The position numbers and the translations under genes are program-made. A stretch of 62,052 nt of DNA, filler included. It is 8 parts of 8 records of this genome, joined end to end, with 100 filler letters (N's around TTAATTAATTAA, not from the genome) between each part and the next. Parts side by side here need not be neighbours in the genome. Positions count along the whole stretch, not along the records: positions 5,485 to 19,498 come from SRR31156797_68843; 7 more parts are not named here. One strand, 5' to 3'. Shown here piece after piece: positions 5,385 through 19,598 of the stretch (positions within the stretch are counted from its first letter, which is position 1; each line of letters begins with the position of its first letter). Below the pieces are notes generated by a model that saw only the letters and a program-made list of their open reading frames with translations, was not told where the DNA came from and did not search any database.

Positions 5385-5563
5385 NNNNNNNNNNNNNNNN
5401 NNNNNNNNNNNNNNNNNNNNNNNNNNNNTTAATTAATTAANNNNNNNNNNNNNNNNNNNNNNNNNNNNNNNNNNNNNNNNNNNNCATTGCGCTTTTTACC
5501 GAGATGTATGGATTCCCCAAATTACTATCGATTAAACGACTACAACTTATTAAGGATTATGCT

Positions 5564-6028
5564 ATGAAAAATTTCATAAAAACACTGTGTTCCACCATCG
5601 TTGTTGCCGCTGTAATGTCTTCAACGATATTTGCTGAAAAAGTATATGCCCAAACTGATGAAAACCAATCCATGGGCGGTACCATGATGATGGGTATGAT
5701 GAGCCGAGAACAGATGGCTGATATGTCTGAGCACATGCAAAAAATGCTCAAAATAATGGACAAAATCAAAGGCGAAACCGATCCGGAAAAACGTCAGCAA
5801 TTAATGCAGGAACATATGCGGGCTATGCAGGAGGGGATGCAGATGATGAATAAAGGTATGCCTATGCAAGACAGTATGAAAATGACTGAACATCAGGGTA
5901 AAGGCATGTCGGATAAAATGGGTGAGCCAGACATGATGAAGCGCATGGACATGATGGAAGAGCGCATGGGTATGATGCAAATGATGATGGGACAGATGAT
6001 GGAGCATGAATCTGAAGCGAAATATTAA
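5564..6028 (+). CDS. Secreted Met-rich helical protein, putative periplasmic Cu(I)/Ag(I) sponge
   Basis: RBS AAGGA before ATG 5564; signal peptide ending VYA; about 36 Met in about 125 mature residues; located in the copper island. Confidence 0.7.
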   Translation: MKNFIKTLCSTIVVAAVMSSTIFAEKVYAQTDENQSMGGTMMMGMMSREQMADMSEHMQKMLKIMDKIKGETDPEKRQQLMQEHMRAMQEGMQMMNKGMPMQDSMKMTEHQGKGMSDKMGEPDMMKRMDMMEERMGMMQMMMGQMMEHESEAKY

Positions 6029-6051
6029 CAGCACTACTTTCCCTGTGTCTA

Positions 6052-6082
6052 TTGACCTTCCCCTAAGGGAAGGGTCTATAAG
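6052..6082 (+). promoter_or_regulatory. CueR-type (MerR) promoter/operator
   Basis: TTGACC, 19-bp spacer TTCCCCTAAGGGAAGGGTC, TATAAG; dyad ACCTTCCC...GGGAAGGG resembles the E. coli copA CueR box. Confidence 0.85.
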
Positions 6083-6133
6083 TTCTCTTAGGTTGTGTCA
6101 TAAACACAATTTTGTAAGGATGCCTGAGAGGTT

Positions 6134-6526
6134 GTGATGCTAAAACCGTTGCATACAATTTGGTTAACCGGACTCACACTGTTTGCTTTATTGCTCTCTA
6201 GTGTCTCTGCCAGTGCCTCTCTTAATATGCCGCTCAAAAATAGGGGCGATTCTTTAACTGTATCGTCTCTTTCACATGATGAGCATTTGAAGTGTTTGTC
6301 ATCACAACTCGAATCAATAACGACCGAAACAGATTGTCATGATTCAACCAATGATATGAATCCAGAGCATCAGTGCTACCCTTCGAGCTGTGCAGCTAGC
6401 GCTCTGCTGATTTCTCAAGTCATCATCACAAACTATCAAACACCCCAACGTATCCCTTTCTTCAGGGAAACTGCTGAGTATGTCAACTCGGTAACAGGCA
6501 ATTTGTATCACCCTCCAATAGTCTGA
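6134..6526 (+). CDS. CopL/DUF2946-like exported Cys/His protein ending LYHPPIV
   Basis: Hydrophobic N-terminal signal, DCH...HQCYPSSC metal motif, C-terminal xYxPP motif; first gene after the CueR-type promoter. Confidence 0.55.
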   Translation: MMLKPLHTIWLTGLTLFALLLSSVSASASLNMPLKNRGDSLTVSSLSHDEHLKCLSSQLESITTETDCHDSTNDMNPEHQCYPSSCAASALLISQVIITNYQTPQRIPFFRETAEYVNSVTGNLYHPPIV

Positions 6527-6671
6527 TTCCTTCTTAACGGTTAATACCCTCGTCAACAGTGGCTTTGACATGCTTATCTTGCATGACGTTTGTCTGTATA
6601 ACCGGCTCAATTTCGTTATTAGATAACGAGCATTTTTGCAGTATCTATCAACTCGAAAAGGAAAATCATCA

Positions 6672-7313
6672 GTGAATATTCGAAAACCTTTAGCTTGCTT
6701 TGCTGCCTTGCTACTTGGATTGAATTCGATCACAGCATTCGCTCATGAAGGTATGCATGACTCAGAGAGGGACTCTGGTTTGAAAGAAGTGAACCAAGAC
6801 GTACCAGCATTAGCACTGGATTCTGCTGAATTTAAACAAGCCCAAAACCTTTTTCGTGCGGTTGGTGGCTATGGCTGCACCGCATGCCATGGTCTGTTTG
6901 CTCAAGGGGGCGGTAACGTGGGGGGAAATATAAGAGACCATTCACTAAGCCAGATAAATTATGCCCTTCAGAATGAGCCAACAATGAAGCTACTGAATAA
7001 TGCACTTAGCGATGGAGATAAATATGCTCTGGCTGGATATCTCAAAGCTTTGGGTAAATTGGAACTCATTGAGTGGACGATTGATGGAGAGGTTTCATAC
7101 ACCAAGGTGGAAATTGATAAAGAATCAGATAATCAACTGGTTATATTCAACAAAACTTTTGACTCTATCGATTTGTCTTTGATGCCGATTGGTAATAATC
7201 ACACACTTTCAATCGAACCCTATGCAACAGAATCGTATACGTGGAAAGCACAACCCGGTGAATACAGATTGCAATACAACCAGCATGTTCTTGATATGTC
7301 CTTCAGGTTCTGA
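6672..7313 (+). CDS. Monoheme c-type cytochrome with C-terminal cupredoxin-like beta domain
   Basis: Signal peptide (AFA-HEGMH), CTACH heme motif, candidate axial Met (EPTM); C-terminal LVIFNKT...YTWKAQPGEYRL pattern. GTG start after AGGA. Confidence 0.7.
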   Translation: MNIRKPLACFAALLLGLNSITAFAHEGMHDSERDSGLKEVNQDVPALALDSAEFKQAQNLFRAVGGYGCTACHGLFAQGGGNVGGNIRDHSLSQINYALQNEPTMKLLNNALSDGDKYALAGYLKALGKLELIEWTIDGEVSYTKVEIDKESDNQLVIFNKTFDSIDLSLMPIGNNHTLSIEPYATESYTWKAQPGEYRLQYNQHVLDMSFRF

Positions 7314-7339
7314 ATAAAAGGAAAATTGACGATAGTCTC

Positions 7340-7371
7340 TTGACCTATGTGTTGCACACAGGTTTTAAACT
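7340..7371 (+). promoter_or_regulatory. Second MerR-type promoter/operator (20-bp spacer)
   Basis: TTGACC-TATGTGTTGCACACAGGTTT-TAAACT with dyad ACCTATGTG-N3-CACACAGGT (1 mismatch), upstream of small ORF-merR-copA. Confidence 0.75.
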
Positions 7372-7409
7372 CAAAATAGAAACATAGATAAAGATGTAAG
7401 GAGTTCGTT

Positions 7410-7523
7410 ATGAGTTGTTGTAATAAAGCGCCTAATGGCGGAACCAGTGACCCTAAATTATTGTTGAAAGTGACTTTAGGTATGTTAGCGGTCATTGTGT
7501 TGTTAGTTTTTTTATTTGGTTGA
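7410..7523 (+). CDS. 37-aa single-TM microprotein with N-terminal Cys-Cys
   Basis: RBS TAAGGAG; MSCCNKAPNGGTSDPKLLLKVTLGMLAVIVLLVFLFG*; first ORF after the MerR-type promoter; below the ORF-track cutoff. Confidence 0.65.
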   Translation: MSCCNKAPNGGTSDPKLLLKVTLGMLAVIVLLVFLFG

Positions 7524-7580
7524 TTATCCTTAGGAATTTTGTGCTATCTCACTATTTTGTTGCCATTCAGAGGGTTAAGT

Positions 7581-8027
7581 ATGCTGACAACTGAAATTGC
7601 CCGGACAGTCGGGGTTACTGCGGAAACGGTTCGCTTTTATACCAGAAAAGGACTGATCTCTGCGACGAAAGACCCTAGTAACGGCTATAAAATTTACCCA
7701 CCGAGTGCTGTGGATAGATTGCGGTTTATTAGTCATGCGCGAAGTATTGGCTTTAGCTTAAGCCAGATTGAAGAGATCATAGAATACTCTCAGCAAGGAA
7801 ATTCTCCCTGTCCGAAAGTACGGAAAATGCTGAGTGATAAAATATCTGAGACACAACAAAAAATTAAAGAATATCAGATGCACCTGGCTGTTATGGAAGA
7901 AACTTATTCCGAGTGGGTGCATGAACCAGACATGACTCCTGACGGGAAGGCGATATGCTGCCTGATTGAAGACTGGTCAGATAAACATCCATCGATTAAC
8001 TCTCAGGAGGCAAAAAATGAAGGTTAA
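7581..8027 (+). CDS. MerR-family metal-responsive regulator
   Basis: HTH EIARTVGVTAETVRFYTRKGLI, NGYKIY, ARSIGFSLSQI; Cys at start of dimerisation helix (SPCPKV) and C-terminal ICCLIE. Confidence 0.9.
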   Translation: MLTTEIARTVGVTAETVRFYTRKGLISATKDPSNGYKIYPPSAVDRLRFISHARSIGFSLSQIEEIIEYSQQGNSPCPKVRKMLSDKISETQQKIKEYQMHLAVMEETYSEWVHEPDMTPDGKAICCLIEDWSDKHPSINSQEAKNEG

Positions 8028-10737
8028 AGAATATTCTCTTGCGTTATCAGGTGTCAGTTGCGGCAATTGTGTTACAAAGATCGTTTCCGCTTTAAGGGAA
8101 AGCGATCCTGATATCTCGCTGGTTATTAATAATAGTAAAGATAAAACAGATCTTATTACCACATTGGAACCAGAAAACGCGATACAAATTATTTCCAGCA
8201 CTGGATATGCTGCGACTTTGCCCGTAATTCACCAATACGAAACAACATTGGCTAACGTTTCTTGCCAAAACTGCGTTAAAAAAATCACGTCTGGCATTAG
8301 AGATGTGGATAACAACGCTGATGTGTCAGTGGACATTTTGGCTCAGCGGTTAGTTGTCAATAGCCATGTCAGTGATTCAGAGGTGGAACGTATTTTACTG
8401 GAGTTAGGATACAGTGGCCGAAACGGAGAGCGGAATACCGCTGTTCCCGATGTGGCTGAATCTAATACGACCAGTGTTCATATGGATTTATTGGCTCAAA
8501 AGCAGACGGTGAATCTGGCTTTAGTGGGAGTGACATGCGCCAGTTGTGTCAATACCATTGAGGGGGCTCTGACAAATCTGGAAGGTGTTGAATCAGTGGA
8601 TGTCAACTTTGCCAACCGTACAGCGACCGTTCAGTCTCATCAATCAACACTATCACTTATTCAGGCGATTCAGGCGGTTGGTTACGATGCCAGTGAAATC
8701 GTTGATGCTGATGAGGCGGAAGATATCAAAGCAGAGCAGGAAGCCCAAGAGTATCGGTTTAAAATCAGGCAAAGTATTATCGGTCTGGGACTGGGTATTC
8801 CATTGATGGGTTATGGCCTGCTGGGTGGCCCTATGAACGTAAATACCCTCTCAGAGCAAGCTCTCTGGCTTGGTATCGGTTTGTTGACATTGGTTATTTT
8901 GTGGCGAGCCGGCAGGCATTTTTTTAAGGGAGCCTGGAAAGCGTTCTTAAATCGTAACGCCAACATGGATACCCTTATTGCACTCGGCACTGGGACGGCC
9001 TGGCTCTATTCAATGGTGGTAGTTTTAGGACCTCAATGGTTACCTGAAAGTGCCAGACACCTCTATTTTGAGGCGACCGCAATGATAATCGGTTTGATCA
9101 ACCTTGGGCAAGCGCTTGAGGTTCGGGCTAGAGGCAGAACGTCTCAGGCTATCAGACGGTTACTTGATCTGAGAGTAAAAACTGCGGTGGTGATTCGTGA
9201 CGGACAAGATGTCTCCGTTCCTGTCGAACAGGTGATGCGGGGTGACAAGATCCGGGTAAGAGCAGGTGAGAAAATTCCTGTGGACGGTGTGGTCACTGAT
9301 GGGCGTACGACGATAGATGAGTCTATGTTAACCGGGGAACCGATTCCCATAGAGAAGCAACCGGGCAGCCAGGTATCCGCAGGCACCATAAACGGTCAGG
9401 GAAGTTTTGTGTTTGAAGCGAAAAAGGTAGGTAGTGACACTGTTCTTGCTCAGATTATCAGCATGGTCTCCAATGCGCAGAACTCGAAACCTCCTATTAG
9501 TCACTTAGCCGACAAGGTTTCTGCCGTTTTTGTACCAACAGTTATGATCTTATCCATTATGACTGCTTTGATATGGTACAACGTTGGTCCGCAGCCAACT
9601 CTGGCCTATATGATTGTTGCCGCAACCTCAGTACTTATTATCGCTTGTCCCTGCGCTCTCGGGCTGGCGACGCCAATATCTACCATGATTGGAGTTGGGA
9701 AGGCGGCAGAGTTTGGTGGTTTGATCCGCAACGGAGAAGCCTTACAGCGGGCAAGTGAATTGGATGTTGTCGTATTGGATAAAACCGGGACCATCACACA
9801 GGGTAAACCTGAGGTCACAAACTTCCGTGTCTTTTCGGGTGAAGAAAATATTTTGTCGCTGGTTGAGACTTTGGAAAAAGGCTCTAACCACCCATTGGCT
9901 CAGGCATTAACCAGCTATGCGCAACACCACGCTCAATCTGGAGAGTCACCACAAGTATCCGAGTTTGAGTCCTTAACCGGTATGGGAGTGCAGGCTCACT
10001 ACAACGGGAAAAGATTGCTCCTTGGTAACGATAAGCTTATGAATCGGTTTGGACTGAAAACAGAGACCGTGAGTGAATACGCCATCCAGTGGGAACAAGA
10101 TGCAAATACTGTGGTGTACTTTGCTGTAGATAACGATATTCAGGCTCTTTTTGGTATCAGCGATCCTATAAGAGAAGATGCCCGAAGTGCGATTGATCGT
10201 TTTCACCAACAAGGTATTCATGTCGTTATGCTAACCGGAGATAACGAAAATACGGCTAGGGCGGTTGCGAGCTTGTCCAATGTTGACGAGTTTTACGCAG
10301 GGCTAATGCCAGAGGATAAGCTTAGCTGGATTAAAGAGTTTCAGGTACAGGGAAAAGTTGTCGGCATGGTTGGCGATGGGATCAATGATGCTCCGGCACT
10401 TGCTCAGTCCGACGTTGGGTTTGCTATCGGAAGCGGCACCGATGTTGCCATTGAAAGTGCGGATATCACTCTGATGCGAAGCTCTCTGCATGGTATTTCA
10501 GATGTTATAGGGATCAGCAGTGCAACGATGACAAATATCAAACAGAACCTCTGGGGGGCGTTCATTTACAACTCCCTGGGTATACCGGTCGCAGCAGGAT
10601 TACTATTTCCATTTACGGGCTGGCTTCTAAGTCCAATCATTGCAGGAGCAGCAATGTCGCTGTCATCTGTTACGGTCGTCACTAACGCAAACCGGTTGCG
10701 CTTATACAAGCCTGGCCGTTCTATCAGTAATAAATAG
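8017..10737 (+). CDS. copA: Cu(I)-translocating P1B-1 ATPase with three HMA domains
   Basis: GVSCGNC, NVSCQNC, GVTCASC; TGE, CPCALGLA, DKTGT, HP, GDGINDAPAL, YN..GIP, AMSLSS. Confidence 0.95.
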   Translation: MKVKEYSLALSGVSCGNCVTKIVSALRESDPDISLVINNSKDKTDLITTLEPENAIQIISSTGYAATLPVIHQYETTLANVSCQNCVKKITSGIRDVDNNADVSVDILAQRLVVNSHVSDSEVERILLELGYSGRNGERNTAVPDVAESNTTSVHMDLLAQKQTVNLALVGVTCASCVNTIEGALTNLEGVESVDVNFANRTATVQSHQSTLSLIQAIQAVGYDASEIVDADEAEDIKAEQEAQEYRFKIRQSIIGLGLGIPLMGYGLLGGPMNVNTLSEQALWLGIGLLTLVILWRAGRHFFKGAWKAFLNRNANMDTLIALGTGTAWLYSMVVVLGPQWLPESARHLYFEATAMIIGLINLGQALEVRARGRTSQAIRRLLDLRVKTAVVIRDGQDVSVPVEQVMRGDKIRVRAGEKIPVDGVVTDGRTTIDESMLTGEPIPIEKQPGSQVSAGTINGQGSFVFEAKKVGSDTVLAQIISMVSNAQNSKPPISHLADKVSAVFVPTVMILSIMTALIWYNVGPQPTLAYMIVAATSVLIIACPCALGLATPISTMIGVGKAAEFGGLIRNGEALQRASELDVVVLDKTGTITQGKPEVTNFRVFSGEENILSLVETLEKGSNHPLAQALTSYAQHHAQSGESPQVSEFESLTGMGVQAHYNGKRLLLGNDKLMNRFGLKTETVSEYAIQWEQDANTVVYFAVDNDIQALFGISDPIREDARSAIDRFHQQGIHVVMLTGDNENTARAVASLSNVDEFYAGLMPEDKLSWIKEFQVQGKVVGMVGDGINDAPALAQSDVGFAIGSGTDVAIESADITLMRSSLHGISDVIGISSATMTNIKQNLWGAFIYNSLGIPVAAGLLFPFTGWLLSPIIAGAAMSLSSVTVVTNANRLRLYKPGRSISNK

Positions 10738-10746
10738 GAGGTTGAT

Positions 10747-10827
10747 ATGTGGGTGAACGTAATAGGTCTTACAGCCATTGTACTGATCATCTGGTGGTTT
10801 TGGGGGAAACAACTCGGCAGAAAATGA
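10747..10827 (+). CDS. 26-aa membrane microprotein (N-terminal anchor of CupA-like cupredoxins, no domain attached)
   Basis: RBS AGGAGG straight after the copA stop; MWVNVIGLTAIVLIIWWFWGKQLGRK*. Confidence 0.55.
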   Translation: MWVNVIGLTAIVLIIWWFWGKQLGRK

Positions 10828-10879
10828 CAATATTGTCATCATTACCGTCCGGTTACTGACAGGTACTGTAGGCTAAGAT
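10824..10879 (+). promoter_or_regulatory. CusR/CopR box 1 with -10
   Basis: Perfect palindrome ATGACAATATTGTCAT (10824-10839); TAAGAT 34 nt downstream; precedes the 10915 ORF. Confidence 0.85.
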
Positions 10880-10914
10880 CAGCACTAGATAGAGTAAGTA
10901 ATTTGGAGAAAGTT

Positions 10915-11238
10915 ATGAAAGCTAACAACAAAAATCACAGTTGCCATTCGGGACACGGCGAGCACAAAGGCCATGGTTGGATGATGCTTCTATGTGTACT
11001 GTTTATGGTCGGAATACCGTTCCTGGTTCTCTCCTCAACCATGAGTTCGTTTAGTCCGTCTCTGCTTGGTACCGCACTTGTGCCTCTGATTTTATGTCTG
11101 GTCATGCACGGGGTGATGATGAAATTTATGATGCCAGGAAGTACAAAAGATCAGGATGCTTCTCAAGAACCGCAGGATAAGAAAGAGGTGCAAATGGTAG
11201 AAGATAAAACGAATGATGGTGGTCGATTTAGCGCTTGA
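10915..11238 (+). CDS. DUF2933-like His-rich two-TM membrane protein
   Basis: HSCHSGHGEHKGHGWMMLLC, two TM segments, LCLVMHGVMMKFMM motif typical of copper-locus small membrane proteins. Confidence 0.65.
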   Translation: MKANNKNHSCHSGHGEHKGHGWMMLLCVLFMVGIPFLVLSSTMSSFSPSLLGTALVPLILCLVMHGVMMKFMMPGSTKDQDASQEPQDKKEVQMVEDKTNDGGRFSA

Positions 11239-11338
11239 TTTATCTCATTCAAAGCAACGAATCAGGAAACCAAGATTTCTAAGTCTTTTGATAACGCCGT
11301 ACAACTTTAAATTTAAAAAAGAGAATAAGGATTGAATA

Positions 11339-11632
11339 ATGAAAACTGTTCTTACAACAATGCTGATCGGTAGCCTTATTTCTGCACCAATATTTGCACA
11401 GGATATGGTAAAAGACAGCGCAACCGAAGGTTCTCATAATCAGCACCACGGTTCGGAGAGTAACACTTCTTCATCCGCTGAAATGCCGATGATGGATATG
11501 ATGCAGAACATGGAAAATCACCAGCAGATGATGTCGCAGATGCATGCCATGATGACTGAAATGCATCAGATGATGTCAGAGAAAGGTTGCGACAAAGCAA
11601 TGGGAAAAAATATGATGGAAAAAGAAAGCTAG
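11339..11632 (+). CDS. Second secreted Met/His-rich periplasmic protein
   Basis: Signal peptide (IFA-Q), HNQHH and MPMMDMMQNMENHQQMMSQMHAMMTEMHQMM. Confidence 0.7.
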   Translation: MKTVLTTMLIGSLISAPIFAQDMVKDSATEGSHNQHHGSESNTSSSAEMPMMDMMQNMENHQQMMSQMHAMMTEMHQMMSEKGCDKAMGKNMMEKES

Positions 11633-11676
11633 TTACCGATTCCGTACATAATTTCTCTTTATCTACTTCAAATTTA

Positions 11677-11709
11677 GCTCGTGCTTATGGCCGGGCTTTT
11701 TCTTTTTTT
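11677..11709 (+). terminator. Rho-independent terminator
   Basis: AGCTCG...CGGGCT imperfect stem followed by a T tract. Confidence 0.5.
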
Positions 11710-11810
11710 CAAAATTTTAATTGATATTTAGCATGATATAGATCATCTGAATATTTTGTAACTTCATGTATAACCATCTGATGTGTCGAATGTTTTCTGG
11801 ATTAATATAA

Positions 11811-13763
11811 ATGTTTAATAACTTGAAACTTGGTCAAAAGATAGGCTTGGGTTTTGCGACTCTTATGGTATTTCTTTCCATTATAGTGATGATGAGTATT
11901 TTCACGCTGAATAAGGCTGATTTGGGTATAGAATCGTATAGTCGCCTTAGTGAAGTGTCTGACTTTAGTTATCATATTCGAAATAAATTGATTGAAGTGA
12001 AAGAAGATACACGAGCGTACTTATTGTCAAATAGTGATACAGACATTCAACGCTACAACAAACATATCTCGGAGTTGGACAAAGCCCTTCAGATGCACTT
12101 ACCCTCATTCGACATGAAAAATGCAAAAGTGCTTAACGACATATCAAATAAACTGCATCAATATGATGAAATATTTTCAGATGTAATCAACCAAACAAAA
12201 CAGAGAAGCGATGTTTTGAATGGTGTCCTTGAACCGAGTGGTGAGCATATGTTCAGTACCATGCGTCAACTTGCAGTCAAGGCTTATGATTATGGTGACA
12301 CAGACTCTGCGTATCGGGCATCTCTGGTTCAGGAAAAGCTGCTATCAAGTCGGATCAATGTGTTGAAGTTTCTACAGTCAAGCAGTGATGAAAATTACGA
12401 TATAGCCTTGAAAGATATGCAAGAGTTGAAAGGCGAAGCTATGGCGTTAAAGAACCTGTTAACCGAGGATTCATTGAAAGGCCTCCTTACTCAGTATCAC
12501 ACGTCACACAAATCGTATCTTCAAGCAATGAGTTTGATTCAACAGGCCGAAGTTGCCCGAAAAGAATTGATTCAAGTTCGCCTTAAAGGTTTAGAAACTG
12601 AAATAGAAAAAGACATATTAGAGATTCAATCTACCGTCAATGATAGCAAGAGAACAACCGAACTGGCATTGAAGTCAACAACAAAGCAGAGTATCCAGTT
12701 TACTACTGCTATTTCATTTATTGCCATTTTAATCGGTACTGTCTTGGCGTACTTGATGACTATCTCGATTACTAAGCCCATTTTGAAAGCTATCGATGCA
12801 GCAGATAAGCTTTCTCAGGGAGATTTATCGGGCTGCTCTGACGAATCAAGTGTTCGAAAAGATGAGGTCGGAACGTTACTCAATGCGATCAATGTTACGA
12901 CGATACGATTGAGAAGTATGGTCAGCACGATTGCTGAAGCCGGTAAAGAGCTGAATCAAACATCTTCGGTGATGATCAATCTGACGGAGAAATACTCCAA
13001 CAGTATCCAGAGACAAGAACAGGAAACCGATTCCGTAGCAACTGCAATGACGGAAATGACAGCGACCGTAAAAGATGTTGCTCAAAATACTTTAATGGCT
13101 GAACAAACAGCAAGTGAAGCAAGGGAGCGAGCAACGAAAGGTTATATCATTGCAAAAGAGACCACGCAGATAATCAATAAGCTAGCTCAATCCGTTGGTG
13201 ATTCTGCTGAAAAATTATCTGTAGTGGAAGTTGAGTCCGGTGATATTGGCAATATATTAAATGTTATCTATGAAGTCGCGGAGCAAACGAATCTTCTCGC
13301 TTTAAATGCGGCCATTGAGGCAGCAAGAGCGGGGGAACATGGTCGTGGTTTCGCGGTTGTTGCTGACGAAGTAAGGCTACTTGCACAGCGAACTCGAGAG
13401 TCAATCACTCAGATACATACTATCACTGAAAAACTACAACATGGTATCCAAGATGCTGTTCAGGCAATGAACAATGGTAAAACTCAAACCGTGTCCAGTG
13501 TTGAACAGGTTAGCCTCATGGGCGACGCACTATCGGCTATTGAAGAGTCCGTGTCGGTTATTTCTGATATGAATACTCAAATTGCTAGTGCTTCTGGTCA
13601 GCAAAGTATTGTCGCGGATCGTGTCGGTGAACATATGAAATCCGTTGGTGAAATTGCTCGTAGAAATACAAACACGATTATGGATATCAACTCGTTATGT
13701 AGTGATGTCGGTAGTTTATCAATTCAACTGAGTAAGCTGATCAGTCAGTTTAAGCTTTCATAA
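11811..13763 (+). CDS. Methyl-accepting chemotaxis protein (helical periplasmic sensor, HAMP)
   Basis: Two TMs, [44 protein letters not shown]. Confidence 0.95.
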
Positions 13764-14151
13764 ATCAGCAAATTATTTGGATGGTGCCTGGTTGAGCTGA
13801 GATGCATAAAAATTCGCTTTAATTAAAAAGAGACGTTGGGTAGCTGAGCCACATGAAATGAGGTTGATAGGTTGTTCAGGTTGGTTCTCATATATTGAAG
13901 TGCTGTGTCTGCGCGGGCTTACCGTGGCACTCTTTCTTTCTCTGCCATTGAAGAGACAAGGAAGTTCAACAAATATGAAATTTGGTGCACTCTTCCTTAG
14001 GTGTATTGCGAATAATTCATTTTAGTACTACTTGTTTCTTTGGTGAAAAGATCGAACCAGATTTTTCGTATTCCTATCTTCTGTCGTTATTATTCATCCT
14101 CTCCTATGTTTAATCTCGTATTAGAGATAACGTTTATTAAGTAGTGATAAT

Positions 14152-14233
14152 AAAAAAAGCTGAGCCTAATGCTCAGCTATAAATGATAAATAAAATAATG
14201 AACCTCAAATGTTACCATATGAGTAAGCAGTGG
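14152..14233 (-). ncRNA. Candidate CusR-induced sRNA A (about 80 nt)
   Basis: Lies between the minus-strand CusR promoter and the terminator AGCTGAGC-ATTAG-GCTCAGCT-TTTTTT; no RBS-led ORF inside. Start inferred from the -10. Confidence 0.55.
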
Positions 14234-14239
14234 ATCTCT

Positions 14240-14294
14240 AGTATAAATGTAATATAATGAATTTTTCCTGACCAGAGAATGACAGATTTGTCAT
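14240..14294 (-). promoter_or_regulatory. CusR/CopR box 2 with -10, leftward
   Basis: Minus strand ATGACAAATCTGTCAT (14294-14279), N6-GTCAG, then TATACT exactly 33 nt after the box. Confidence 0.75.
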
Positions 14295-14577
14295 GGAATT
14301 AACAATAAATATAAGATATAACGCCATTGTTCTTAATCATTAATTACAGAAAAATTAATAGGATGAGAGGTAAAGGTTAAACTTTACGATGCAGATGATG
14401 TTTTGTTGTCTTTTATCTATAAACTTATGATTTTTTTGTTTTTCATCCCAAGTGTTGCTTTTACTAATATTACATTCCCAAATATTTTCCTACCGCAATG
14501 AATTGCTTGTATCACTATTTTCTATATTTATCCCTGTGCTGGGAATACTTAAAATATAAATAGCAAAGGATATTAAA

Positions 14578-14632
14578 ATTACACGAATGTCATTTTTGAG
14601 TCATGTTTATGACATGAATGAATTGTTAATTT
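14578..14632 (+). promoter_or_regulatory. CusR/CopR box 3 with -10, upstream of porin
   Basis: ATTACACGAATGTCAT (degenerate), N6-GTCAT, TAATTT 33 nt after the box. Confidence 0.6.
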
Positions 14633-14951
14633 CTCCGTTATAGAAATTAGATGAATGATTACCTATTCAAAAATATGCATGGTTAGAATAAATTAAGCAG
14701 CTTTGTCTGCTTAATTATTGTTTGAGTAGAAAGCAGCGTGATATTGCTTTGCCAGTATTTTAATTTTGTTGAGTGGGGCGATACCATAATATTATATGGC
14801 ATATTTTTCTTTGTCTCCCTCGTGACTTTGTTAGTACTGGCATGCAATTAAATGGCCCCTCTCTTTCTGTAGTAGGGGGTAGGAATGTCGAAAATCATAT
14901 GAGAATCGATAGATTTTTGTCCTGTTTCGACGACACAAGGAAATTGCATAA

Positions 14952-16298
14952 ATGATTGAAAAAAAATTAAAAATGGCTGCTCCTTTGGCAGTGGTACTAA
15001 TTACAGCTCCGGCACTGGCTGATGTCGCTTCACCATCGCTAGATGGTTTGAAGGGTGAAATTGATCAACTGACCGCAGAAGTCGCTAACCTAAAAAATGA
15101 CCAATCTGCTATCAGGCTTAATGGTTATTACCGTATGCAAGGCACGGCGGAAAGCCTCGATGAAACTGACGATAATAGTAGTACTTGGGTTGATCAGCGT
15201 CTGCGCATGAAGGTCACCGGCGACCTGAATGAAAATGTTACTGTGGTTTGGTACGGTGAGTACGATGCTCCCTTTGGTGAAAAAGGTAGTAAGACGGTCG
15301 CAGGTTCAGGTGGCAAACTCAGCTCTGATGGCGTTGGTATTGAGACAAAAAACGCTTACGTTGATTTTAGACTACCGAATACGGACTGGAAGGTACGAAC
15401 GGGTATTCAAGGGTATGGTTTTGGCAAATATGAGAGTTTCGTGACTGATGATGACATGAACGGCATCTCGTTTTTGGGCAATATAGACATGGTCAACCTG
15501 AGCGGGGGTTGGTTTAAATGGGATGAAGGAGAAAGAGATTCGTCAGACGACGTCGACTTCTACGTGTTGAATGGTGAGTTAAACCCTAACGATAATCTAA
15601 GTTACGGTTTTACTGGAGGCTCAATCAACAACAGGAACGAAGATGCCATTAATGGCACGGCTGCTCGAACGGACGATATTTATCTTGGATCCTACGTTGA
15701 CTACACTTATGGTGACATGGCTTATAGCGGTTCTGTACTCTATAAGATTGCGTCAGGAATGGACTCAAATGCTTCTGATGGCGAAGCATTCATGTTAAAT
15801 CTCTATGCTCAAAAGCATTGGACTGGCGGTTATATTAAAGTCCACGGTATCTATATTCCTGCTGACGACAGCAGTAATGGGACAGATCGTTTTGCTGAAA
15901 ACAATTCAGGTTATGAGCTCAACAGTAGTAACCTGATGATCTTTGGAACCGATTCATACTACAACAACGGCTCGCAAGGAGGTAAGGCAGTTTTAGATGC
16001 AGCTTACCAAGGGTACGGCTTGTTGGGACTGATGCTTTCTGGTGATCAGATGCTAGAAGATGACTACTATGTTAAGTATGGCGCTGGTTACTTCAGAGTG
16101 GCTGACGATGCCCCTCAGAGTGCTTCACAGGCAAATGGTTCGAATCTTGGTGCTGAATTGGCTGCACAGTTTGGCAAAAAATTTGCGGGTATATATGACT
16201 TGAGTTTGCGTGGTTCTTACGGTTTTATGGGGGATTTCTATCAAGAAAGCTCTGAGGACACATACAAGATTGTTGCTATGCTCAATGTCGTATTCTAA
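14952..16298 (+). CDS. Outer-membrane beta-barrel porin, deltaproteobacterial (OmpJ-like) type
   Basis: Signal peptide, short coiled coil, WVDQRLRM, GEYDAPFG, SSDGVGIETKNAYVDF, alternating beta strands, terminal Phe. Confidence 0.75.
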   Translation: MIEKKLKMAAPLAVVLITAPALADVASPSLDGLKGEIDQLTAEVANLKNDQSAIRLNGYYRMQGTAESLDETDDNSSTWVDQRLRMKVTGDLNENVTVVWYGEYDAPFGEKGSKTVAGSGGKLSSDGVGIETKNAYVDFRLPNTDWKVRTGIQGYGFGKYESFVTDDDMNGISFLGNIDMVNLSGGWFKWDEGERDSSDDVDFYVLNGELNPNDNLSYGFTGGSINNRNEDAINGTAARTDDIYLGSYVDYTYGDMAYSGSVLYKIASGMDSNASDGEAFMLNLYAQKHWTGGYIKVHGIYIPADDSSNGTDRFAENNSGYELNSSNLMIFGTDSYYNNGSQGGKAVLDAAYQGYGLLGLMLSGDQMLEDDYYVKYGAGYFRVADDAPQSASQANGSNLGAELAAQFGKKFAGIYDLSLRGSYGFMGDFYQESSEDTYKIVAMLNVVF

Positions 16299-16330
16299 TT
16301 GAATCATTAAATACAATTAATTTTATTATG

Positions 16331-16358
16331 ACGGTCAAGCAGTCGCTTGACCGTTTTT
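16331..16358 (+). terminator. Rho-independent terminator after porin
   Basis: ACGGTCAAGC-AGTC-GCTTGACCGT-TTTT. Confidence 0.85.
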
Positions 16359-16567
16359 CTGCGTTATCAAATCATTCAAGATTATTATTTTATTGAATCC
16401 AGGATGTTCTTCTCATGAGTTTTAATCAAAGTCGAGCCTTATGGATAACCTTTTTCTTATTAATGGGTTAACCGATTTTTACCATTCGGACCGTTTCCAT
16501 TGTTAATCTTTCCGTGTATAGCGTTGATATCAACCAATGAGTTCAACTCATTAACTTTTAAGGAAAT

Positions 16568-16622
16568 ATGACAAAATTGTCATCTTAAAGACCAGAGTTC
16601 GACACCATGGCACCATTAAGAT
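16568..16622 (+). promoter_or_regulatory. CusR/CopR box 4 with -10
   Basis: ATGACAAAATTGTCAT (16568-16583); TAAGAT 33 nt downstream. Confidence 0.85.
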
Positions 16623-16663
16623 GTGATCAAGTTACAAATATCAACGCAACAAAAGGAAATCCA

Positions 16664-17035
16664 ATGAAACTGATGAAAACGACTTTTACGACAGCAGCCT
16701 TGATTTTACTAAGTGGAAACGTCCTGGCAGGTCAGTATATTAATACTTATGGCAATTTTGAGGAAAGACTGGACACTCGCACATTTCACACCGAAGCGGT
16801 CTCTTCAAAACAAGAAGCCTATAAACTGGGGTTACAGCAACTACATGAACTTGACAATAGCTCGTCACAAGAGCTCAATCATAAATTATTGGTCACTGGC
16901 GACAGTAGTAATGATATCCATTTGAATAAAAACGGTTATGTAACCGTACAGGAATTTATGAACGATGCTGGCCAGATATTGTACAAAGGTGAAGTTAACG
17001 TCAGCTATCACTACGCAGAACGTCGTGACGATTAA
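16664..17035 (+). CDS. DUF3316-like secreted protein (Vibrio-enriched family)
   Basis: RBS AGGA, signal peptide, SKQEAYKLG...YVTVQEFM...YKGEVNVSYHY. Confidence 0.7.
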   Translation: MKLMKTTFTTAALILLSGNVLAGQYINTYGNFEERLDTRTFHTEAVSSKQEAYKLGLQQLHELDNSSSQELNHKLLVTGDSSNDIHLNKNGYVTVQEFMNDAGQILYKGEVNVSYHYAERRDD

Positions 17036-17211
17036 AACGATTAAGTAACAGTGACTCGAAACTCTAGCGTTATAGGGTAGTCGAGTCATTGTTATTTTTT
17101 TGCGCTAAATGACATCGGTTGAACAGTCATTCGGCAATATCCAATTCAAGTTATTTGAGCTAGTTTGTATAATAACGCTCTAAGTACATAACACTATAAT
17201 ATTTATTAGAA

Positions 17212-17895
17212 ATGAAGCTATTAATTGTTGAAGACGAGCCTAAAACAGGCAGTTACTTAAAAAAGGGATTTACTGAGTCAGGCTACGTTGTTGATCTTGC
17301 TTATGACGGCGTCGATGGACTCTACCAGGCGACCACCAATCATTATGATCTCATTATATTAGATATCATGCTTCCTAAGTTAAATGGTTGGCAAGTGTTA
17401 CAAACAATGCGAAGCAGTCAATTAGATACACCAATCATTATGCTTTCTGCAAAAGATCAGGTAGAAGACAGGGTTAAGGGACTGGAGTTGGGAGCGAACG
17501 ATTATGTCGTCAAACCTTTTGCTTTTGTTGAGTTGCTTGCCCGGGTTAAAAATGCGTTAAGACACCAAAACGGGCAAGTGAAGAATGATGCGACCTTAGC
17601 TATCGCTGATTTATCTCTGGATCTTTTGAAGCGGACAGTTCACAGAGGGGGGGACGCGATCCTTCTGACCGCCAAAGAGTTCTCTTTATTAGAACTCTTT
17701 TTGCAAAGACGTGGCGAAGTTCTGTCGCGTTCACTCATCGCCTCTTTGATATGGGATATGAACTTTGATAGTGATACCAATGTTATTGATGTGGCGGTCA
17801 AAAGGTTGCGATCTAAAATTGATAAACCTTTTGATGTTAAATTAATTCATACGGTGCGTGGTATGGGTTATAAACTCGATGATTCTGTAGAATGA
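17212..17895 (+). CDS. cusR: Heavy-metal response regulator CusR/CopR
   Basis: [63 protein letters not shown]. Confidence 0.9.
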
Positions 17896-19229
17896 AGCTG
17901 AAACTTAAAAACTCAATGGCAACAAAGCTTATTGTCATGTACATGGCGTCTTCATTTGTCGTCCTTACTTCATTTGCTTTAATTGTTCAGTATTCAATTA
18001 AACATCATTTTTATCAGCAAGATTACAAACGGCTCGACAACTATTATCATACGGTTTTTTCCTCGTTTGATAGTTTAAGTGATAATGCTATTACAGCGTT
18101 AAAGGCCGAGTCGGTTTCCTTGTGGGTGTTAGACCGGAATGGCATGACTGTGTTAACAAACACGACGTTATCTCTGCCCGAGAATGCAAAAAAGCTAAAA
18201 TCGATGGAATGGACGGTCGGTGGACAAACATATCGCACTTTCCTGTTTCAGCTAAAGCATCCACAATACGGCGCCATTGTACTTGGACTCAATATTGACC
18301 TCCATCTCTTATTTATTAGTCAATTTAATATTGTTCTGCTGTGGACGTTTGTCATAACGAGCGTGATATCAGGGGTGTATGCGGTGTTTATTGTTCACAA
18401 AGGCCTAAAGCCTCTGCACGTTTTACAGAAGTATCTGAGTAAAGTTAGCCCTAATCGGCTGGATATCAGAGTTCCGGTTGAAACACTTCCTATAGAGCTA
18501 GTGCAACTGGTTGAAACACAAAATGAAATGCTGAAACGCTTACAGCATGGCTTCAACAGGCTGAGTGAGTTTTCTTCCGATATTGCACACGAACTCCGAA
18601 CTCCGTTAACCAACATTATGACCCAGACGCATGTCACGTTATCTTCAAAAAGAACAGTGGAGGAATATGAAGAAATACTCCTTTCCAATGTGGAGGAATT
18701 GGAAAGGCTGAACAAGACCATACAAGATACACTTTATTTGGCTAAGTCTGAAAATCATTTACTTCATACTAATAAAGAGATGCTACAATTAGCAGAAGTT
18801 ATCAGGCCACTGCTTGAATTTTATGAATTTATGGCTGACGAAAAGGAAGTTTGTTTAGAGTTACGTGGAGATAGCGAGCAGTTTGGGGATAAACAGATGC
18901 TGCAACGTGCAGTGGGAAATATTATTTCTAACGCGCTGAGGCATTGTGATGTTGGCTCTGTGGTATCCATACAGCTTTCAGAAGGTGAAGAATACAATTC
19001 TATCAAGATAAAAAATACCGGAGAGACAATTCCGGAAAGTTCTTTACCCTATCTGTTTGACCGATTTTATCGAGCAGATAAATCCAGACAGCATAGCAGA
19101 AGTATTGGTGCGGGGCTTGGTTTAGCTATTACCCGATCTATTGTCCAGGCGCATGGTGGTGAAATCACTGTATCTTCCAGTGAAAGAGTCACTGAGTTTA
19201 CTCTGACAATGAAAAAGGGTGAGGTCTAA
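17892..19229 (+). CDS. cusS: Heavy-metal sensor histidine kinase CusS/CopS
   Basis: HF..QD periplasmic motif, [31 protein letters not shown]; overlaps the cusR stop. Confidence 0.9.
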
Positions 19230-19316
19230 ACGAGCATAGTCAGATTTTTTCATTGAATCTGTTTTGTTGCGTGTATTGTTGTCTAGCTTAAACTAAGAAC
19301 CTATTGACTCCGCTTC

Positions 19317-19371
19317 ATGACATTATTGTCATATTTCAGTCAGATAAAAATCAGTATGTATCCTTTATTCT
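19317..19371 (+). promoter_or_regulatory. CusR/CopR box 5 with -10
   Basis: ATGACATTATTGTCAT (19317-19332), N6-GTCAG, TATTCT 33 nt after the box. Confidence 0.8.
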
Positions 19372-19377
19372 AACCTT

Positions 19378-19474
19378 GTTCTCATAATTAATTGGTTCGA
19401 TGAGAACGTTAAAGCAATAGTACTTTTTTCATTTCTTATTCATTTTATGCTGAGTGTCAACTCAGCATTTTTTT
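19378..19474 (+). ncRNA. Candidate CusR-induced sRNA B (about 97 nt)
   Basis: 5' stem GTTCTCAT/ATGAGAAC begins at the predicted TSS; U-rich linker; terminator ATGCTGAGT-GTCA-ACTCAGCAT-TTTTTT. Confidence 0.55.
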
Positions 19475-19598
19475 GCTCTCCAATTACTTCCCAATAGANN
19501 NNNNNNNNNNNNNNNNNNNNNNNNNNNNNNNNNNNNNNNNNNTTAATTAATTAANNNNNNNNNNNNNNNNNNNNNNNNNNNNNNNNNNNNNNNNNNNN

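Follow-up and report, generated by a model that had tools for sequence, protein, structure and literature searches.

The window analysed here is a stretch of 62,052 nucleotides (nt) in which unrelated contigs are chained through N44-TTAATTAATTAA-N44 linkers (5385-5484, 19499-19598 and five further places). One of these contigs, 5485-19498 (SRR31156797_68843), holds element A, a short unit on the minus strand which the original prediction read as a CusR-box promoter driving a non-coding RNA. According to family searches, the contig codes for a MerR regulator, a heavy-metal P-type ATPase, a chemoreceptor, a DUF3316 protein and a cusRS-type pair, the latter 3 kb from element A; the GC-rich flanks outside the contig are no part of this copper island. 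Judged from its sequence and from that of its relatives, element A is one of two or three sibling units on each of a rare kind of mobile Vibrio copper island, and these units probably constitute a new family of CusR-driven, porin-repressing small RNAs (sRNAs). The MicV/RybB-type seed at the 5′ end of A, its porin target and its membership in a family had been overlooked in the original prediction. Genomes, runs, loci and further units carry our own handles (G001, X2, L003, H1 and the like). The features are as follows.

14279..14294, minus strand: CusR-type palindromic box ATGACA-N4-TGTCAT, ATGACAAATCTGTCAT; halves without variation among all 10 aligned copies.
14258..14272, minus strand: extra half-sites GTCAG and TCA 3′ of the box, invariant across the aligned copies; GTCAG itself at 14272-14268, six bases after the box.
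14240..14245, minus strand: -10 hexamer TATACT, 33 nt past the box; siblings have TATACT, TATTCT or TATAAT at 32-33 nt.
14152..14235, minus strand: predicted sRNA A, roughly 84 nt long, with a 5′ end placed by inference to within +/-3 nt; near-identical in G001, the Vibrio sp. dhg plasmid and the V. crassostreae plasmid.
14224..14235, minus strand: unpaired 5′ seed AUCCACUGCUUA, 12 nt, MicV/VrrA/RybB-type, predicted partner an ompT-like ribosome-binding site (fold and target scan).
14204..14223, minus strand: small internal hairpin (fold), the loop letter differing between alleles.
14179..14203, minus strand: single-stranded U-rich tract (fold), likely Hfq contact.
14152..14178, minus strand: intrinsic terminator with an 8-bp stem and U7; over 10 copies, base pairing holds in 80 of 80 cells and 3 pairs differ on both sides.
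14177..14218, minus strand: 13-codon open reading frame (ORF) MVTFEVHYFIYHL, judged non-functional; it lacks a Shine-Dalgarno sequence and is frameshifted on the V. crassostreae plasmid, and B, C, H1 and G345a contain none of at least 8 codons.
19317..19475, plus strand: sibling unit B, directly behind cusS, with box, -10 hexamer TATTCT, 5′ hairpin, UUUUUUCAU core and terminator.
17212..19229, plus strand: cusR/cusS-type heavy-metal two-component pair, presumed activator; TIGR01387 and TIGR01386 above cut-off, Pfam CusS sensor domain.
14578..16298, plus strand: divergent gene whose product resembles an outer-membrane barrel (14952-16298), preceded by a weaker CusR-type box (14578-14593); Desulfovibrio-type porin hit (DESULF_POR1) at E 5e-18, weak and below cut-off.

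The palindrome of element A fits that of E. coli CusR as quoted in PMC11195947. As originally predicted, the box is followed by six bases, GTCAG and, 33 nt after the box, TATACT, all within 14294-14240 on the minus strand. The proposed likeness in spacing to the box of the DUF3316-like gene (33 nt) and to box 1 (34 nt) was borne out by counting at 16568 and 10824, where TAAGAT follows after 33 and 34 nt, respectively. The CusR palindrome is placed at activator spacing, its 33 nt being that of the coding promoter at 16568, and the cognate cusRS genes are nearby. ATGACAANNNTGTCAT has four exact matches within the window, all of them on contig 5485-19498; at 3 mismatches or fewer there are 41 matches compared to 17.6 +/- 4.7 in shuffles, and 41 was reached by 0 of 100 shuffles. 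Invariance of the extra half-sites is partly a matter of construction because the copies were first found via the GTCA pattern. We predict that element A is a member of the CusR regulon, which would imply binding of CusR and induction by copper. Regulators of the CusR/CopR type are known to activate genes for efflux and for chaperones.

Downstream of the promoter, the stem of the terminator comprises 8 bp at 14178-14158 followed by the U tail, and the CUCA...UGAG hairpin and U-rich tract that precede it fold as had been claimed, with z values of -3.1 and -3.7 for two 5′ ends. Taken alone, terminator-like sites near A are not above chance (3 found, 2.2 expected). Pairing of the terminator drops to 21-43% in slid controls; in comparisons with shuffles, sequence kinship can by itself beat the shuffles. 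With its seed, U-rich tract and intrinsic terminator, A has the make-up of a stand-alone sRNA unit of 50-200 nt, and no reading frame is conserved in it. An Rfam scan returned no match at element A at E<=5. The gene for Hfq is present in all five carrier genomes tested, and the U-rich tract would bind this chaperone in the manner generally known for sRNAs. A leader of a decayed gene near 14100 had been named as the alternative to an independent transcript; the only candidate there is a 7-codon ORF, and the V. crassostreae neighbour gene left no remnant. A DUF1304 remnant adjoining A was looked for and not found. Altogether, the promoter layout shared with the siblings, the covarying terminator, the unconserved ORF and the presence of cusRS and hfq in the carriers support the reading of A as a putative non-coding, CusR-driven RNA.

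The siblings share a common layout, namely a CusR-type box, GTCAG, a -10 hexamer, a body of 84-115 nt, a covarying terminator and a U tail; box, GTCAG, -10 hexamer and terminator are common to 10 of 10 aligned copies. Units occur on contig 5485-19498 (A and B), in G001, G285, G345, G377 and G383 and on two Vibrio plasmids. Around element A, 1,301 bases are matched in G001 at 100% reported identity, and a third sibling, C, lies there at C1:3935567, just past the end of the contig and beyond a lamB-like gene. The island is also present on the plasmid of Vibrio sp. dhg and, rearranged, on that of V. crassostreae; element A is intact in the rearranged island and unannotated in both plasmid records. 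Of 401 Vibrionaceae genomes, 11 contain a pattern of box plus GTCA, at 18 places in all. Eight of these places are followed by a short body with a terminator of the GCUGAG type; G001 and G377 account for three each, G285 and G383 for one each. An RNA model trained on 10 copies recovered three units each in G001, G377, G383 and the Vibrio sp. dhg plasmid. G285 and the V. crassostreae plasmid, which have the same letters and were counted once, gave one unit plus a decayed copy, and G345, a genome absent from the training set, gave two divergent ones. The model was positive in 4 of 151 Vibrio genomes, which marks the family as rare. The six islands each keep two or three units with divergent bodies and fixed seeds.

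The BLASTN comparison proposed along with the original prediction gave full-length matches of A only in G001 and G285 among the 401 Vibrionaceae genomes. At E<=0.01, 53 of the 401 matched A, and among the 30 loci cut out those outside G001 and G285 were ordinary terminators or chance. A strict promoter pattern run over genome contigs, which was not exhaustive and missed the G285 copy, returned 11 stretches, two of them of the sRNA type (three units, Vibrio sp. HN007); in the other nine no such terminator follows, and several continue into coding genes. The metagenome pattern yielded 20 stretches, four of them near-identical copies of A, B or C, and no new unit type. No such unit was detected within 1.5 kb on either side of 30 other cusS-type loci, the best-scoring of 86 places.

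The predicted RNA A begins with unpaired AUCCACUGCUU, a seed of the type found in the sigmaE-dependent RNAs MicV, VrrA and RybB. These three have the seed CRCUGCUUUU in common, and the 5′ end of MicV pairs with the ompT ribosome-binding site (PMC6694218). Eight of the ten letters stand consecutively and unpaired at the 5′ end of A; the last two differ. G001 contains a MicV-like gene at C1:357655, so labelled by us from its seed and promoter, and its RNA has 9 nt (CCACUGCUU) in common with A; in both, an unpaired leader of 12 nt precedes a hairpin. Upstream of the MicV-like gene stands GAAC...GTCTA, which we take to be a sigmaE promoter.

Targets were scanned in 2,014 called genes covering 2.46 of the 5.19 Mb of G001 (47%), with scores that sum duplex energy and opening cost between -60 and +60 relative to each start. 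For A, a Porin_4 gene ranked first of 2,014, with 11 bp at -16..-6 and -14.8 kcal/mol. This gene also came out on top for the MicV control, whose 17 bp at the ribosome-binding site overlap the site of A, and we therefore call it ompT-like. The five other Porin_4 genes ranked 29, 35, 105, 145 and 343 for A, ompW 836 and host lamB 1385. Among 500 dinucleotide shuffles of A, one reached the ompT energy and none the six-porin sum. Pairing of A with the ompT ribosome-binding site is accordingly predicted. CCACUGC is present in all six islands, in one or more units each, and is spread over three body types; it lies 5′-terminally in A and internally in H1 (G377, G383) and in G345a, a unit outside the training set of the RNA model; 0.0012 occurrences per 90 nt are expected by chance. 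The seed regions of H1 and G345a rank the ompT-like gene second and first in the G001 gene set, and ompT-like was the best of the own-genome porins tested for H1 (6) and G345a (4); the same holds among the porins tested for these seeds in G377, G285 and G345. Of 151 Vibrio genomes, 145 contain the target pattern AAAGGCAGTGG-N10-AAA, which stands ahead of ATGAAA in most of the matches listed (20 unlisted). As the pattern is near-universal in Vibrio, a mobile RNA with this seed would find a target in nearly any member of the genus.

We consider it probable that A is a copper-induced sRNA switched on by CusR, which pairs through its seed with the ompT-like ribosome-binding site, blocks the porin and lowers copper entry. 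Periplasmic copper would activate CusS, and binding of CusR to the box would start the 84-nt RNA. RNA A, probably together with Hfq, would then cover the ompT ribosome-binding site so that no new porin is made, and less porin would mean lower copper entry. More tentatively, and with somewhat less than even confidence, we propose a copper-triggered porin swap in which CusR turns on sibling sRNAs, one of them reusing the host's sigmaE seed on the Vibrio-wide ompT site, and the island supplies channels of its own. The island LamB-like and barrel proteins may replace the silenced host porins by standing in for them, the least supported step of the proposal.

Several observations weigh against porin silencing by these RNAs in response to copper. 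Even for E. coli, the evidence that porins take part in copper uptake is mixed (PMC7558416). The sensor family of the island cusS also takes in silver and zinc systems. The RNA runs are contigs, three with flat, DNA-like cover and one without a contig over A, and are uninformative on expression; missing cover over A in X10 was not counted as evidence. The target scan was home-made, relied on our own gene calls and used blocks partly chosen to include porin genes, and the ompT rank follows from the seed and is not independent of the resemblance to MicV. In the allele of runs X2 and X4, one of four distinct A alleles, a changed seed base weakens the ompT energy to -8.3 and cuts the predicted pairing by half. 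The RNA model that found G345a already contained such seeds, the seeds of G345a and H1 are partly within predicted hairpins, and a C copy has decayed in one island (L054 30438-30571: box with one change, core kept, terminator lost).

The siblings with the UUUUUCAU core have to be weighed on the same side. This core is common to B, C, H1-H3 and G345b and complementary to AUGAAAAA, found at MKK-type starts. In whole-RNA scans, no porin ranked better than 88 for B or 162 for C. When the core alone served as query, a porin was in the top 10 for six of the seven RNAs tested (best for H1, 29; rank 8 for G345b), ranks that arose after the query had been restricted to the conserved core. They are largely due to UUUUUCAU itself since shuffled extensions equal real ones: porin-specific extensions in B, C, H2, H3 and G345b were rejected, as 12 to 87 of 100 shuffled extensions did as well. 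Genes starting with ATGAAAAA number 53 of 2,014 and include six of the seven porin genes checked. By a crude hydrophobicity rule, 36 of the 53 are signal-peptide-like compared to 471 of 2,014 overall. It is likely, from this complementarity, that the UUUUUCAU siblings dampen exported proteins starting with MKK or MKN broadly, porins included.

These last figures favour a different purpose for a real CusR-driven sRNA, namely relief of envelope stress or periplasmic load, or other main targets; A would then be a copper-inducible extra MicV amid CusCBA and barrels. That the seed of A is of the envelope-stress RNA type and that the sibling extensions are not porin-specific fits this idea, which has most molecular steps in common with porin silencing; yet the single best site of A is still the ompT-like ribosome-binding site, and we regard such a purpose as unlikely. 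Very unlikely in our estimate are decoys, i.e. units that titrate CusR or whose RNAs sponge MicV targets or Hfq without repression of their own. Several boxes per island, the broken seed in one allele and the decayed copy would suit decoys, but a DNA decoy has no use for a -10 hexamer, a body and a covarying terminator, and the seed recurs in three body types. Pairing between A and MicV is not possible because their seeds have the same sense. A relic, i.e. a promoter and terminator left behind after deletion of a coding gene, is highly improbable. Rearrangement of the island from carrier to carrier would suit a relic, as would the flanks of A, which among close alleles show about the same conservation as A itself, but each of the six islands has kept two or three units with divergent bodies and fixed seeds, and A moved intact within a rearranged island. 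That A is the mRNA of a 13-residue microprotein is hardly credible: four A alleles keep the ATG-started ORF within the unit and H2, H3 and G345b have short unrelated ones, but the sole ORF of A (14218-14177) has no Shine-Dalgarno sequence upstream, as already noted in the original prediction, its codon 2 is V, E or G as set by a hairpin-loop base, a frameshift interrupts it in the V. crassostreae plasmid copy, and it has no counterpart in B, C, H1 and G345a.

A CusR-driven RNA that silences a porin would have several known counterparts. Of the ten letters of the MicV, VrrA and RybB seed, A has eight in a row; its predicted target, the ompT ribosome-binding site, is that of MicV (PMC6694218), and it resembles MicV in the unpaired 5′ leader followed by a hairpin. 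In place of a sigmaE promoter, A has a CusR-type box and TATACT, it resides on a mobile island, and its pairing in G001 extends over 11 bp versus 17 for MicV. Beyond the seed, the alignment of A to MicV was matched by 407 of 5,000 shuffles and is not significant; descent of the 5′ half of A from MicV was rejected accordingly. Neither promoter nor homology places A among the sigmaE-dependent sRNAs. InvR and IpeX are horizontally acquired sRNAs that repress host porins. The likeness is one of logic, an RNA on acquired DNA driven by the regulator of that DNA and aimed at a core-genome porin, and no sequence relation is expected; A differs in its metal-sensing two-component input and its sibling copies. 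MicF, MicC and OmrA/B are OmpR-controlled sRNAs through which an OmpR-family regulator turns activation into repression of outer-membrane proteins, siblings included. The family of A differs from them in regulator, signal and seeds, and they are core-genome genes. In P. aeruginosa, CopR and CzcR repress OprD in an Hfq-requiring manner that was described as transcriptional repression, the authors knowing of no repressing sRNA (PMC5083921). This is likewise a copper two-component system lowering a porin with Hfq (PMC5083921); A offers a candidate RNA for such logic, in Vibrio and not in Pseudomonas. The original prediction was not aware of any described CusR- or CopR-driven sRNA, and none was listed in our literature search; Vibrio sRNA catalogues in supplements or subscription journals could include these RNAs. 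By term search, a 2026 review of signal-responsive sRNAs makes no mention of copper or CusR (PMC13501541).

The family offers RNAs, a seed, a target site and a natural one-base variant, which makes the link from copper to porin loss directly testable. It also provides a natural case for the proposal that sRNAs be annotated by seed (PMC6694218). With islands on Vibrio plasmids and a Tn7-like element, new hosts could see their outer membrane remodelled once they are exposed to copper. If true, the porin swap would be a direct circuit from metal sensor to sRNA to porin, in which a mobile element plugs a new signal into an old seed-target pair.

Two outer-membrane proteins of the islands are of interest here. 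For the barrel-like protein (14952-16298), the nearest Atlas clusters are alginate-export barrels at 0.95-0.96, and no Pfam match was obtained. Its box (14578-14593) is exactly matched in G285, and the protein is possibly a copper-regulated channel. In G001, the lamB-like gene is flanked by B and C; this position and the box of the barrel gene hint at replacement channels. Maltoporin-like genes in copper islands (L003 14159-15397, L265-L269) are away from maltose genes in the stretches seen. The five best matches of the island LamB-like protein are in the five carrier genomes, and the sixth is in G181, a genome without the unit.

In G001, the island continues with cusCBA-like genes and ORFs resembling Tn7 transposition genes, a label given from our reading of the sequence and not from a family search. 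Tn7 tnsA/B/C/tniQ-like ORFs border the island there (L004 5884-13645), broken by an insertion-sequence transposase. G001 has a second chromosomal cusS-type gene with two CusR-type boxes nearby (C1:3306733-3310452), a locus at which the RNA model detected no sRNA unit; cross-talk of this system with the island promoters is possible. A methyl-accepting chemotaxis gene is part of the copper island (11811-13763, plus strand), and the V. crassostreae plasmid matches there over a short piece only. DUF3316 genes (16607-17035; L053, L269, L297) are recurrent, often two per island and each downstream of a CusR-type box, and DUF3316 looks like a regular protein of the copper regulon.
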